DNA of 56,242 nucleotides, from the NCBI GenBank assembly GCA_027295505.1, contig JAPUKU010000056.1, positions 1 to 56,242 on the forward strand, written 5' to 3'. Below the pieces are notes generated by a model. It saw only the letters and a program-made list of their open reading frames with translations. It did no database searches and was not told where the DNA came from. The DNA comes from Acidobacteriota bacterium. GTDB taxonomy: Bacteria > Acidobacteriota > Polarisedimenticolia > JAPUKU01. Made by a program: the position numbers and the translations under genes. This document shows positions 41,770 through 44,485 of the stretch, in pieces (the stretch's first letter is position 1; each line of letters starts with the position of its first letter).

Positions 41770-42648
41770 TCAGGCGGGAATGCAGACGGGGAGGGGTCTC
41801 AGCTTCACGACGTTCTGATCGATGAGCTGTAGTGCGTCCTCCAGCGATCCGTACTCGAGCTCGGCGCACAGCGCCCCGCGCGTGAGGCGTTCGGCCATTG
41901 AAAGAAAATTGGCCGGATCGAACCGGTAGTGGTTGTATGAGGCACCTGCCAGCCGACGCACGGCCTCCACGCGCTCGAGCGATTGCAGCCGGGGCTTTGC
42001 CCCCTCGCGGTAGGTGGGAAACAACAGAGCCGTGCGGCAGGGTCCCACGGGACCGGAGTGGCAAAAAGCCGGCTGCACAATCATGTGATGAATGCGCCGC
42101 TGGGGTGACGTCAGAGGGCCCGGCCGGGCAGGCTCGAGCTCCGGGCCCGGTTCTGGAAAGAACGGAATGGATCCGAACTTCAGGTTGAGTGGTTTTGGAA
42201 ACTCCTGCACCTGAAGTGAGTCGGGGCTTACGATGAGCATCTCGTCGGTGACATAGAGAGCACCCCGTTTGATGAGCCCCGCCACGAGCGTTGTCTTGCC
42301 GCTGCGCGGGGGGGCCGGCAGCAGGATGAGCGTATCAGAGACAACCGCGGCTGCGGCGTGGAACAGTGCCGGCCCGTCGAGGAGCCGGACGAGCTGACCA
42401 TAGATGTTTGCCTCCAGGTACTCCAGGGCGTCGTCCAGGTCACGGCAGCGAAAGAGCCTGCCGCGGCCCTTTCGCACCACGAATCCTTTGTCGCGCTCGA
42501 CTTCGTAGTGCTGGTAACCCGGTGCCGCGCCTTTTCGGATGGGGAAGGGCTTCAGGATGCGGCGAAATTCGTCCTCGAATTCGGCGCACGTGCATCGCAG
42601 GCCGAACGGCTGCCCTGCCAGGCGCACGGTGTGCTCGACCGCTCTCAC
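41770..42648 (-). CDS. HprK-related kinase (RiPP/PqqD-associated type)
   Basis: FHAAA...APPRSGKTTL...YVTDE...FPKPLNLK; GTGA overlap with the radical SAM gene. Confidence 0.78.
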   Translation of the reverse strand: MRAVEHTVRLAGQPFGLRCTCAEFEDEFRRILKPFPIRKGAAPGYQHYEVERDKGFVVRKGRGRLFRCRDLDDALEYLEANIYGQLVRLLDGPALFHAAAAVVSDTLILLPAPPRSGKTTLVAGLIKRGALYVTDEMLIVSPDSLQVQEFPKPLNLKFGSIPFFPEPGPELEPARPGPLTSPQRRIHHMIVQPAFCHSGPVGPCRTALLFPTYREGAKPRLQSLERVEAVRRLAGASYNHYRFDPANFLSMAERLTRGALCAELEYGSLEDALQLIDQNVVKLRPLPVCIPA

Positions 42649-44258
42649 GCGGAACGAAGCTCCATCAATCCCAGACCGGCCAGCTCTGCCAGCAACTGCC
42701 GCACATCACGGCGCACATCCGGCTCGGGGGCCCGGTACCGACGGGCGAGATTGCGGGCGATCCTGTCCAGGCTGCGCCGGCCGTTGCATTGCCCCACGAT
42801 CTCGGTGGCAACACGGTTCACGGCCAGGAGCGCTGAGTGCGCGCGGGAGTAGAGCAGGCCGAGCTCGCCGCAGCGCACCCAGCTCAGGCTTTCGCCGCGC
42901 ACTGGAATGCATCCGTCGACAGCGGCTGGAGAGGTGTCCGGCTCCGGTGCCCCTTCCCAGGTCCCTGTGTACGGATCATAAGCACAGGAAGGCGGCTTGG
43001 ATCGAAGCTGGCCCGTCTGCTTGTAGGCCAGCGCCCGGCAATCAAAACAACCGTAGCGAAATTCACAGTCGCGGCAGACGGGAATCTGCTCCTTGTCGAT
43101 CGACCAGAGATCCTGGAGCGAGGCGGTCTCGAGGACCTCCTGCAGCGGACGGCGCAGGACGTTGCCAACTCCGAGCTCTCTGGAAAATATGCAGGGGAAG
43201 ACGTCCCCAGTGGGAGCGACCGCTATCTTGCCGCTCCAGCAGGTCTGGCACCCCATGCTGCCGTTCGCCCCGGCCTGCATCGACTGTCCGCTAGGGGGCG
43301 AGGTCATGCGTGTCTGTCCTCCCGCCGGCACCAGCGAATCACCGCAGCCGCGCCCCGTGGGCCTCACCTCATCCACACCGATCGTGGCGCGATCCACACC
43401 GAGCGACGCCAGCAAGTCTTTGGCCGGCTCGACATCTTCCTGGTTCATCCGCATACGGATGATCCCTGCGCGGACCGCCACGCCGGCGGTGATTAGAGAG
43501 CGGATCGCCTCCACGGTCCGGCGAAATGATCCCGGCACCTGGGTGATCGCCTCATGGGTCTCCTCACAGTGGGAGTAGAACGAGACGGCGACATGCACGG
43601 CTCGCTCCCGCAGAAAGCGCACCCGGCTCTCGTTGAGGAGCGTCGCATTCGAGTAAACCTCGATCCATCGGTAACCCAGCGCGCGGGCTTCGTCGATCAG
43701 CCCCGGCAGATCGGGATCGAGCAGAGCCTCTCCACCGGTGAACTGCACCTTGCGGCAACCTGCCCTGGCGGCCTCCCGGAGGATCCGCAGGTGCTCGCCG
43801 GTGCGCATGGGTCCATCTTCCAGACCCGGTCCCGACCCCGCGTAGCAATGCACGCACCGCAGATTGCACCGTTCCGTCAACTCGAGCCACAGGAAATCGA
43901 GTTCCTTCCGGGATGGAGGTTGGACGGCTAGCGGAGCATCCTGGAGGATGGGAAGCCTCACGATGGAAGCCGGCCGCGGCTTCTCGTTCTCCTGCGGCTG
44001 TGGGGAAAGGACCAGCAGCGGGTGGTCGGAGAGAGCCCGAATGACGAACTGGCGCGAGCGGCTGGAGCGTACGCCAAGATCCCGCACGACGTGCGCGAGC
44101 GGCCGGCCTTTTAAGGCGTCACCGATGAGGCGCGTCATCCAGGCGTCGAGCGGCCAGATGCGCTTTGATTTCAGATCGTACAGTGCAGATCGTGCCGGAC
44201 CGCGCACATACCGCACATCCGGCCTGAGGGAAAGGTACGCCCCATTGCATTTCTTCAC
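42645..44258 (-). CDS. Radical SAM/SPASM peptide maturase with C-terminal PqqD (RRE) domain (alternative start GTG 44273)
   Basis: CNLRCVHC, TGGE, SPASM CWSGK..PC..CRDC..CFDC..C.YDPY; C-terminal LNxxA..I...CNG.RS...I..L...Y...DV..LL..L PqqD pattern. Confidence 0.9.
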   Translation of the reverse strand: MKKCNGAYLSLRPDVRYVRGPARSALYDLKSKRIWPLDAWMTRLIGDALKGRPLAHVVRDLGVRSSRSRQFVIRALSDHPLLVLSPQPQENEKPRPASIVRLPILQDAPLAVQPPSRKELDFLWLELTERCNLRCVHCYAGSGPGLEDGPMRTGEHLRILREAARAGCRKVQFTGGEALLDPDLPGLIDEARALGYRWIEVYSNATLLNESRVRFLRERAVHVAVSFYSHCEETHEAITQVPGSFRRTVEAIRSLITAGVAVRAGIIRMRMNQEDVEPAKDLLASLGVDRATIGVDEVRPTGRGCGDSLVPAGGQTRMTSPPSGQSMQAGANGSMGCQTCWSGKIAVAPTGDVFPCIFSRELGVGNVLRRPLQEVLETASLQDLWSIDKEQIPVCRDCEFRYGCFDCRALAYKQTGQLRSKPPSCAYDPYTGTWEGAPEPDTSPAAVDGCIPVRGESLSWVRCGELGLLYSRAHSALLAVNRVATEIVGQCNGRRSLDRIARNLARRYRAPEPDVRRDVRQLLAELAGLGLMELRSA

Positions 44259-44485
44259 GTGTTGGGACCGCACGGTCCGCCTGTTGGATTGCAGCTCTTG
44301 TTTTCCGGGTTACAACCCGAAAAGGCTGCCGCGGCGCCCGGCGAAAGGAAAAAGGACGAGATGATCACGAGCGCCACGTAAGCCAGGCGCTTCAGAACCC
44401 GCTTGCGGTGGGCACCGCGTTTTTCCCTGTCGGCTGAACTGGCCTTGTCCAGTTTTGAATGTGGGTGTTGCTTCTTTCTGCTCAT
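44255..44485 (-). CDS. Putative RiPP precursor peptide, 76 aa, core FSGCNPENKSCNPTGGPCGPNT
   Basis: Stop overlaps the rSAM start; leader RKRVLKRLAYVALVII..AAAA; three CxP motifs. Confidence 0.75.
   Translation of the reverse strand: MSRKKQHPHSKLDKASSADREKRGAHRKRVLKRLAYVALVIISSFFLSPGAAAAFSGCNPENKSCNPTGGPCGPNT

Follow-up and report, generated by a model that had tools for sequence, protein, structure and literature searches.

Contig JAPUKU010000056.1 of an Acidobacteriota bacterium (class Polarisedimenticolia), whose whole stretch of 56,242 nucleotides (nt) is hereafter called the window, carries on its minus strand a cluster of three co-directional genes encoding a small peptide with three C-x-P units, a radical S-adenosylmethionine (SAM)/SPASM enzyme and an HprK-related kinase, in this order. 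As judged from sequence comparison, the system is genuine and conserved, and in it a radical SAM/SPASM maturase is newly combined with a module made of a kinase and a recognition element (RRE) of the kind that binds peptides made by the ribosome and modified after translation (RiPPs), and with a hitherto undescribed family of CxP precursors. The genes are as follows:

44255-44485, minus strand: precursor peptide gene, 76 aa including the leader, stop codon at 44255-44257; taken from the list of open reading frames (ORFs), with homologous leaders and cores at 21 other loci
42645-44258, minus strand: radical SAM/SPASM maturase gene, 537 aa from the GTG at 44258, with two RRE-type domains
41770-42648, minus strand: HprK-related P-loop kinase gene, 292 aa

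Consecutive genes are joined by GTGA stop/start overlaps, as an earlier reading made from the sequence only had described, and both can be read directly from the minus strand: ...AAC ACG TGA with GTG AAG AAA... at 44258-44255, and ...TCC GCG TGA with GTG AGA GCG... at 42648-42645. An alternative in-frame GTG at 44273 would extend the enzyme to 542 aa.

Precursor peptide, maturase and kinase

The peptide ends in ...AAAAFSGCNPENKSCNPTGGPCGPNT, and x-Pro follows each of its three cysteines (CNPEN, CNPTG and CGPNT, none with Arg at +4). The three CxP units and several Ser/Thr that the sequence-only reading had noted in this 76-aa peptide are indeed there: all three Cys lie in CxP, and the last 22 residues hold two Ser and two Thr. 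At least three CxP units arise in 44 of 20000 shuffles of this 22-residue tail. The peptide does not match any family in Pfam or NCBIfam, and none of ten precursor peptides scanned matches a curated family. Its parts are:

44324..44485, minus strand: leader, residues 1-54, with a basic n-region HRKRVLKR, a hydrophobic stretch LAYVALVIISSFFL and SPGAAAA as a putative AxA-type cleavage site
44363..44380, minus strand: Y36-V-A-L39-V-I41, which the leader alignment places at the YxxPx[VI] RRE-type motif, with L39 in the window and Pro in relatives
44258..44323, minus strand: predicted core, residues 55-76, FSGCNPENKSCNPTGGPCGPNT, with CxP units at 44306-44314, 44285-44293 and 44264-44272

Although the sequence-only reading described the trio correctly, it overlooked the signal-like YxxP leader, as well as a second RRE-like domain in the enzyme and a wider family of unfused homologues (see below). 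Y36 is nearly invariant across the aligned leaders. It is preceded by RRx[FL][LI]K in 12 of the 14 aligned signal-like leaders, or 13 of 15 when that of locus L115 is included (counted by eye), and three leaders (L006, L008 and L087) have the exact form S-R-R-x-F-[LI]-K. A hydrophobic stretch comes next in all signal-like leaders, and in most of them an AxA-type site then stands directly before the first Cys; in the window, the corresponding elements are HRKRVLKR, without a twin Arg, and LAYVALVIISSFFLSPGAAAA/F, with the slash at the putative cut. Since the leader resembles a signal for the twin-arginine translocation (Tat) or Sec pathway, the modified peptide probably leaves the cytoplasm and is cleaved by signal peptidase. 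TatC is present in the window's genome, and Tat may be used in preference to Sec, which we regard as a lead only. A lipoprotein reading was discarded, as the lipobox-like FSG/C does not keep its position in relatives. In paeninodin a C-terminal Ser/Thr serves as the phosphorylation site, and Ser or Thr is the last residue in 7 of 13 signal-type cores.

The domains of the enzyme and the P-loop of the kinase are located as follows:

43989..44258, minus strand: N-terminal RRE-like domain of the enzyme, residues ~1-90, modelled by AlphaFold2 (AF2) as four strands with three helices after them
43416..43883, minus strand: radical SAM core, Pfam residues 126-281 (Radical_SAM, E-value 8.8e-22)
43845-43868, minus strand: CX3CX2C motif, C131, C135 and C138, invariant in an alignment of 23 homologues
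42984..43241, minus strand: SPASM domain (Pfam SPASM, E-value 1.8e-8, residues 340-399)
42654..42908, minus strand: C-terminal PqqD-type RRE, residues ~451-535 (Pfam PqqD, E-value 1.9e-10, residues 475-531)
42292-42300, minus strand: P-loop of the kinase, G117-K118-T119, from the kinase alignment

We read the enzyme layout as RRE-like/radical SAM/SPASM/PqqD on the basis of sequence matches and the structural model. In the alignment of 23 full-length relatives (30-92% identity), the seven SPASM cysteines (C340, C356, C395, C398, C404, C407 and C425) are invariant together with those of CX3CX2C; these ten residues and the Pfam matches bear out the CxxxCxxC motif, full SPASM Cys set and PqqD domain of the sequence-only reading. 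Against NCBIfam, the C-terminal domain scores under the cut-offs with PQQ_PqqD (E-value 6.8e-10), lasso_PqqD_Strm (7.2e-6) and the HPr-rel-A family PqqD_rel_X (0.014). The AF2 model has a mean pLDDT score (predicted local distance difference test) of 74.8, with low-confidence linkers, and 85-93 across the PqqD stretch. The N-terminal domain, which is retained by the unfused homologues and has no match in Pfam or NCBIfam, is modelled with strands at residues 8-11, 15-18, 25-28 and 33-36 and helices at 39-49, 54-60 and 66-78, an order identical to that of the C-terminal PqqD; hhalign pairs the two domains in register over 57 columns with only 52% probability (E-value 1.5e-4).

Structural searches of the enzyme model using Foldseek rank SkfB first (E-value 1.6e-14), followed by BlsE, CteB (5e-12), PqqE and SuiB, with the anaerobic sulfatase-maturating enzyme (anSME) of the anSMEcpe structure at rank 22 (5.7e-10). 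The alignments with the RRE-bearing RiPP maturases SkfB, CteB and SuiB extend over 406-476 columns. Sequence-based matches are to SkfB (9.6e-11), CteB (4e-6), PqqE (2e-5) and anSME (6e-4). Prediction of a complex of the enzyme with the precursor, three 4Fe-4S clusters and SAM gave ipSAE values of 0.02-0.03 against a mark of 0.32, which is no evidence either way. An apparent variant lacking PqqD came up in low-depth contigs of two sequencing runs (X1 and X6), where 42695-42936, the PqqD region, seems replaced by 15-16 letters; the matching sides are shorter than 30 nt with unrelated sequence beyond, and these contigs are read as coming from other organisms.

The kinase matches the NCBIfam model TIGR04352 (HprK-related kinase A) with an E-value of 2.5e-24 and 85.9 bits, under the cut-off of 200, and matches nothing in Pfam; a sequence search of the Protein Data Bank returned P-loop noise only. 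Its alignment keeps H97, G117-K118-T119, G129 and D135-E136 invariant or nearly so. The structural model (pLDDT 89.2, predicted template modelling score 0.87) has the P-loop fold of phosphoenolpyruvate (PEP) carboxykinases and HprK, a PEP carboxykinase-type kinase fold being common to HprK/P. ATP-dependent PEP carboxykinases are its top structural matches (E-value 1.6e-5, TMq 0.61), and HprK/P (PDB identifier 3tqf) is among the matches at rank 40 (E-value 6e-3). With this fold and the conserved association with PqqD-bearing enzymes described below, the HprK-like kinase of the sequence-only reading holds.

Conservation of the system and co-occurrence of PqqD with the kinase

Relatives of the enzyme were collected from proteins (214 relatives among 8000 scored candidates, with a PqqD Pfam domain in 39 of the 120 listed), from genome contigs (502 matched stretches, of which 461 proved to be relatives, with 80 loci retained) and from metagenome contigs (532 matched stretches, 470 of them relatives, with 80 loci retained), giving 160 loci in total. 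Besides the window, a precursor-like ORF adjoins the enzyme at 21 distinct loci of the PqqD-fused clade, from Desulfobacteraceae, Latescibacterota, Planctomycetota/Brocadiales/Scalinduaceae, a 'Deltaproteobacteria' metagenome-assembled genome and metagenomes. The sequence-only reading had named a lack of CxP peptides beside homologues as the observation that would speak against it; this is not what is seen, as CxP cores are found at 19 of these 21 loci, and CxP-rich ORFs at 31 of 75 unfused ones. Across 18 peptides, 111 of 122 Cys lie in C-x-P, while shuffled cores reach a mean of 36.4 (standard deviation 4.5, maximum 53) and none of 2000 shuffles attains 111.

A signal-like leader with a short CxP core is found at L006, L008, L014, L018, L079, L085, L086, L087, L101, L103, L105 and L115. 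The leader takes the form of a basic stretch, RRx[FL][LI]K, (A)Y-x-x-P-x-[IV], a T/S-rich hydrophobic stretch and AxA. The precursors of a Latescibacterota type (L007, L009, L010, L092, L093 and L096) have long (CxP)n cores behind a leader MAKEKYVKPVVETLLGPPAYGQ, which is not signal-like, and a discrete PqqD gene adjoins the signal-less precursor. This discrete PqqD begins with (D/S)RR(Q/E)FIK and a hydrophobic stretch in all four complete copies, a fifth being cut by the contig end:

L007:2217-2597, L009:721-1278, L093:1290-1676 and L096:2000-2389: discrete twin-arginine-like PqqD at Latescibacterota-type loci

Genes for a PIG-L deacetylase and a family 4 glycosyltransferase lie downstream at the Latescibacterota-type loci. 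At L098, the precursor (KKYASPRLELYG...) is located downstream of the enzyme. The precursors of L086 and L010 are cut by contig ends. No precursor-like ORF was found at L005, L121 (379 nt of upstream DNA), L088 (363 nt), L089 (171 nt) and L022; at L022 a PEP-CTERM gene fills the upstream position, and likewise at L006, where the peptide sits beyond that gene. Such a gene for a PEP-CTERM-type secreted protein stands between precursor and radical SAM gene in Desulfobacteraceae-type loci (L006:4142-4954, L022:108-701). Four loci have no upstream DNA (L028, L091, L097 and L159), and L090, L094/L095, L111 and L099 duplicate other loci.

Homologues that end after SPASM are found in archaea, candidate phyla radiation (CPR) bacteria, Bacillota, gut metagenomes and elsewhere, and none of six such unfused enzymes scanned reaches an NCBIfam cut-off. 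Small ORFs rich in CxP accompany these homologues as well, in many cases on the downstream side and behind another type of leader (…LELxKVT…). A scan of ORFs of 20-150 aa found a same-strand ORF with at least three CxP in 30 aa, at most 800 nt away, at 31 of 75 unique unfused loci, against none of the 75 on the opposite strand and one of 75 when 245 kb of distant flanking DNA was scanned. Thus, CxP belongs with the radical SAM core and not with the PqqD/kinase module. Among the unfused loci, the archaeal precursors are longer (~125-150 aa; L011:4606-4989, L013:1818-2270, L026:4606-4977 and L102:2063-2446), with a central CxP/CxxP-rich stretch and, behind it, a C-terminal tail that is charged and looks helical (...LDKLTAEVEELKKKVGR). 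On human-gut-metagenome contigs (L146:2133-2243, L148, L149 and L150), a 36-aa peptide ending in ...YVTCNPYDSCRPD overlaps the start of the unfused homologue.

The kinase, by contrast, follows the PqqD domain. Using tblastn with 20 kinase sequences, and counting fused loci with at least 600 nt of downstream DNA, we find a kinase homologue directly downstream at 23 of 24 PqqD-fused loci (the exception is L098) and at 1 of 99 unfused loci (L115), counts that are not independent because the loci are related. A maximum-likelihood tree of 96 enzyme cores (a quick IQ-TREE run, midpoint-rooted, excluding rows with internal stops or partial coverage) places all 25 fused rows in one 27-row set with an SH-aLRT support of 96; the set is completed by L100, where PqqD is encoded by a discrete gene upstream, and by L115, the unfused enzyme with a kinase, which thus sits within the fused clade. 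Among 25 loci whose neighbours were compared, NTP_transf_5 is found in 14 (though not in the window, L005 or L085), PIG-L in seven and family 4 glycosyltransferases in five, these last mostly in Latescibacterota.

The sister genome, populations and surroundings of the cluster

The enzyme is found in one of 60 other genomes of the class (E-value at most 1e-40), namely G001 of the same genus, whose locus L005 encodes an enzyme 90% and a kinase 92% identical to those of the window. Here the adjacent precursor gene is deleted, such that the homologous ATG and five codons (MSRKK) are in frame with the enzyme (L005:1291-1370). Because the radical SAM gene of L005 now begins with this ATG and these codons, the ATG at 44485 is probably the working start of the window's peptide. 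The genome of G001 holds a precursor homologue elsewhere, on the minus strand at L175:1495-1686 (MKRKQEQKKKKKYGLRRALKKIAYVAPAIIGSFLLTEAVAQTTSTCTPSTLSNCPDGSAPPCN; 41% identical, E-value 1.8e-6), flanked by S9 prolyl-oligopeptidase-type and beta-lactamase-like ORFs (named by eye from their translations). With the queries used, one precursor is detectable in each of the two genomes. Compared with L005 over 521 codons, the window's enzyme has a ratio of non-synonymous to synonymous substitution rates (dN/dS) of 0.149, and over 291 codons its kinase has one of 0.112; both are under purifying selection. Kinase and PqqD are single-copy in the window's genome, where NTP_transf_5 is apparently split over two contig ends (G000:C177:14042-14755 and G000:C6:1-174).

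The stretch is found in 20 DNA sequencing runs from 10 studies, which are sediment or marine metagenomes wherever the habitat is stated. Contigs from four sediment runs list 13 synonymous and four non-synonymous differences in the enzyme and 11 and one, respectively, in the kinase. For the peptide, the differences listed are a synonymous one at K22 and D19G, E21G, L39P and T76P. The change L39P (A>G at 44370), present in three of the four runs, gives YxxP back, and T76P, also in three of the four, is the sole core difference listed, with none listed inside the CxP units. Nine more differences exist beyond those listed.

Further features lie upstream and downstream of the cluster:

44736..44765, minus strand: candidate sigma-70-like promoter TAGATA-18-TATATT, a consensus match only, ~250 nt upstream of the peptide start
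40810..41670, minus strand: BON-domain protein gene, co-directional, ~100 nt downstream (Pfam BON, E-value 3.9e-27)

The divergent intergenic region at 44486-44790 is AT-rich (GC content 0.43-0.46 against ~0.65 nearby) and conserved with L005. Promoter-like sites lie on both its strands, with four seen against 0.7 expected, and would imply a 5' leader of ~250 nt ahead of the peptide ATG. No Rfam family reaches its threshold over 44200-44900; a plus-strand match to SorX in this range (20.5 against 46.6 bits) was discarded as sub-threshold. The eight ORFs flanking the cluster encode TPR, Fis-type helix-turn-helix (HTH), GNAT, RraA-like, two BON-domain, hydrolase and PMT_2 proteins. A divergent 438-aa TPR protein gene sits between the peptide gene and a gene two positions upstream (46172-47215, plus strand), whose 347-aa product has a C-terminal Fis-type HTH alone, with no AAA+ domain detected, and is a possible regulator candidate. 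Two BON-domain genes (39978-41670, minus strand) come after the kinase. A BON homologue occupies this position in L005 (81% identity; L005:3889-5530) and at L085, a 64%-identical locus (48% identity; L085:6588-7412), and was not seen in the loci of other phyla; the BON genes may be members of the operon limited to the clade of the window, L005 and L085.

Proposed maturation pathway, its rivals and significance

We consider it probable that both enzymes act on the peptide, in an operon of the RiPP maturation type. The leader would be recognized by the RRE domain or domains of the enzyme through the A-Y-x-x-(P/L)-x-I segment, and the radical SAM/SPASM enzyme would act, within the last 22 residues, on the Cys of every C-x-P unit. 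Most likely it would join the Cys sulfur through a thioether to a carbon of some residue nearby, each such link removing 2 Da; as acceptor, or else as a turn that positions the Cys, the invariant Pro at +2 could serve. The PqqD-type RRE would recruit the kinase for phosphorylation of core Ser/Thr (+80 Da, possibly several per residue), and export and a signal peptidase cut would then free FSGCNPENKSCNPTGGPCGPNT into the periplasm. A thioether is favoured among the possible radical SAM reactions because the nearest characterized relatives are thioether synthases and Cys is the only invariant core residue, yet it is a tentative choice to which we give somewhat less than an even chance; another oxidation of Cys (to formylglycine or thiooxazole) is unlikely, and what is left falls to some other reaction.

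The pathway draws on several known systems. A set of RRE, HprK-like kinase and NTP transferase is common to lasso peptides of the paeninodin type and to a new family of linear polyphosphorylated peptides (LPPs), whose RREs bind a [Y/W]xxPx[L/V/I/F/A] leader motif and whose kinase adds several phosphates to one Ser (PMC13381572); the statement of the sequence-only reading that HprK-related kinases occurring with PqqD proteins phosphorylate lasso precursors finds support there, and extends to LPP precursors. Leaders of the present family carry Y-x-x-P-x-[IV], the motif of that study, which suggests that the fused PqqD is an RRE serving the kinase and perhaps the radical SAM enzyme too. A PqqD-type RRE, an HprK-related kinase, a Y-x-x-P-x-[VI] leader and, at 14 of 25 loci, an NTP_transf_5 neighbour are thus shared with the paeninodin/LPP module, whereas the fusion of the RRE to a radical SAM/SPASM enzyme and a core made of CxP repeats are not (PMC13381572). 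A term search of PMC13381572 found no mention of radical SAM. The LPP leader reads YxxPxVLxHQxIxFETxxS, of which the present leader shares only Y-x-x-(P/L)-x-[VI], and the LPP hallmarks, a SipW-like signal peptidase, a discrete RRE and an MsbA-like exporter, do not adjoin the cluster in the window. The eight flanking ORFs encode no lasso cyclase, B2 peptidase or SipW-like peptidase, the genome as a whole not having been searched for a cyclase.

With the sacti- and ranthipeptide synthases SkfB and CteB, its best matches, the enzyme has in common an N-terminal RRE followed by radical SAM and SPASM domains and a Cys-rich C-terminal core encoded beside it, and it differs in the extra C-terminal PqqD, the partner kinase, the signal-like leader and a C-x-P unit without an Asp/Asn/Gln/Thr acceptor pattern. 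CrpC of Methanococcus voltae, an RRE-bearing SPASM radical SAM enzyme, makes ranthionine links in a repeated Cys motif, but belongs to TIGR04463 and acts on C-x-x-Q/D (PMC13692751). Closest among curated families to the SPASM region is the grasp-with-spasm maturase TIGR04193 (89.6 bits for the window and 131 bits for archaeal L011), under its 175-bit cut-off, over the C-terminal region only and with no ATP-grasp partner noted. Export-signal RiPP precursors are called rare, a precedent being the bufferins, which are periplasmic, signal-peptide-bearing, Cys-modified copper-binding RiPPs (PMC11626156). As in the present system, a cleavable export signal replaces the classical leader and dedicated exporter and Cys is modified; unlike it, bufferins use MNIO enzymes (DUF692/DUF2063, not radical SAM) and Sec rather than Tat-like signals, and have no kinase (PMC11626156). 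No curated NCBIfam or Pfam family describes the present combination, and a full-text literature search, with most subscription journals outside it, found neither a radical SAM/SPASM-PqqD fusion with an HprK-like kinase nor CxP precursors. This agrees with the earlier reading, which did not recognize the combination as a characterized class.

Several observations weigh against a peptide crosslinked and phosphorylated in this way. The enzyme is under every NCBIfam cut-off (AhbD 110.6 against 500 bits, StsB 95.7 against 625, grasp-with-spasm 89.6 against 175, AlbA 56.8 against 850 and SkfB 57.6 against 300), so that a thioether is suggested by distant resemblance. Ranthipeptide acceptor motifs such as CxxxD and CxxQ/D are absent, the sole conserved partner of Cys being Pro at +2, and at L024 and L120 the shared leader precedes a PCRR-type core in which none of 25 Cys is in CxP. 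The window's leader has Leu for the Pro of the motif and RKR for RR; the TAT_signal hidden Markov model (TIGR01409) does not match the leaders of L008 or L087, the two tested, and gives 13.6 bits with the discrete PqqD of L007, against a cut-off of 16.7. T76, a tempting phosphorylation site by analogy with paeninodin, is Pro in three of the four runs. NTP_transf_5, leader peptidase and exporter genes are not adjacent in the window, the peptide gene is without an obvious Shine-Dalgarno sequence, and the sequencing runs listed as carrying the locus include no RNA run.

The most serious rival, which we nevertheless hold to be unlikely, is that the radical SAM enzyme oxidizes the CxP cysteines without a crosslink, to formylglycine as anSME does or to 5-thiooxazole as SbtM does, yielding a peptide that is reactive or binds metal in the periplasm. 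The sulfatase motif CXPXR, on which the radical SAM/SPASM anSMEs act, opens with C-x-P, and both this motif and the thiooxazole route of SbtM are described (PMC13638132); bufferins offer a precedent for a signal-bearing, Cys-modified periplasmic metallophore (PMC11626156). The cores have no conserved acceptor besides Pro, and anSMEcpe is among the structural matches (5.7e-10). Like anSME/AtsB, the present enzyme is a radical SAM/SPASM protein paired with a Cys that has x-Pro next to it; in contrast to them it has RRE domains and a small repeat peptide instead of a sulfatase, and none of CNPEN, CNPTG and CGPNT has Arg at +4. The similarity to anSME is also weaker than that to SkfB/CteB, both by sequence (6e-4 against 9.6e-11) and by fold (rank 22 against ranks 1-5), and neither the anSME family nor that of SbtM (presumably TIGR04167) is among the 25 NCBIfam matches listed. 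It is rather improbable that the radical SAM enzyme modifies the peptide while the HprK-like protein is a scaffold, a nucleoside triphosphatase, or a kinase/phosphorylase of another substrate. The low TIGR04352 score (85.9 against 200 bits), the better structural matches to PEP carboxykinases (E-value 1.6e-5) than to HprK/P (rank 40, E-value 6e-3), and cores with a variable C-terminal Thr and without any evident conserved Ser/Thr position are consistent with such a role, but the strict co-occurrence with PqqD (23 of 24 against 1 of 99), as in proven peptide-kinase systems (PMC13381572), together with the invariant P-loop, His and Asp and a dN/dS of 0.112, argue for a peptide kinase.

That the system is decaying or silent in the window's genome is improbable as well. 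The Pro of the motif (L39) and the twin Arg are lost, there is no clear ribosome-binding site, the sister genome has lost its adjacent precursor gene and the cluster was found in only one of the 60 other genomes of the class that were searched; set against this, all three ORFs are intact, purifying selection acts on both enzymes (24 synonymous against five non-synonymous differences listed), other strains have Pro39 in three of four runs, the sister genome keeps its precursor in trans, and contigs of 20 runs from 10 studies carry the locus. We give hardly any credence to the notion that the small ORF is due to chance and the radical SAM/kinase pair serves a non-peptide substrate, for example in an AhbD/NirJ-type cofactor pathway: the top NCBIfam scores are to such enzymes (110.6 bits) and the peptide has no family match, yet these scores are far under the cut-offs (500 bits), the enzyme has two RRE-type domains, and the position, leader and CxP core of the peptide are conserved across phyla.

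A more far-reaching scheme would join these observations, though we think it doubtful as a whole. CxP-repeat peptides and radical SAM/SPASM enzymes with an N-terminal RRE would form a family of Bacteria and Archaea with Cys-centred chemistry, and in one clade the leader would double as a Tat signal with YxxP within its hydrophobic region. The fused PqqD would keep hold of the signal peptide as long as crosslinking and phosphorylation are under way, as an export-proofreading chaperone for which we take TorD/DmsD to be models, and the twin-arginine PqqD of Latescibacterota would carry a signal-less precursor through Tat as a hitchhiker. As to function, the predicted periplasmic location, the BON genes of the window, L005 and L085 and the sugar-related genes elsewhere point, speculatively, to a role in the cell envelope or in the handling of metals and away from a classical bacteriocin.

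The hosts of the family are uncultured sediment Acidobacteriota-like bacteria, Planctomycetota (relatives of anammox bacteria), Latescibacterota, CPR bacteria and archaea, from which, to our knowledge, hardly any natural products are known. As the same trio occurs in several phyla, it probably represents a genuine undescribed family of enzyme-modified peptides. Radical SAM/SPASM enzymes are at present the richest source of new peptide chemistry. The conserved C-x-P without a classical acceptor suggests a linkage or Cys modification not described before. The cluster unites two modules hitherto studied separately, the radical SAM maturase and the RRE/HprK-like kinase, in three genes that are small enough for co-expression, and the presence of an RRE motif within a signal-like leader is relevant to the coordination between the modification of RiPPs in the cytoplasm and their export.

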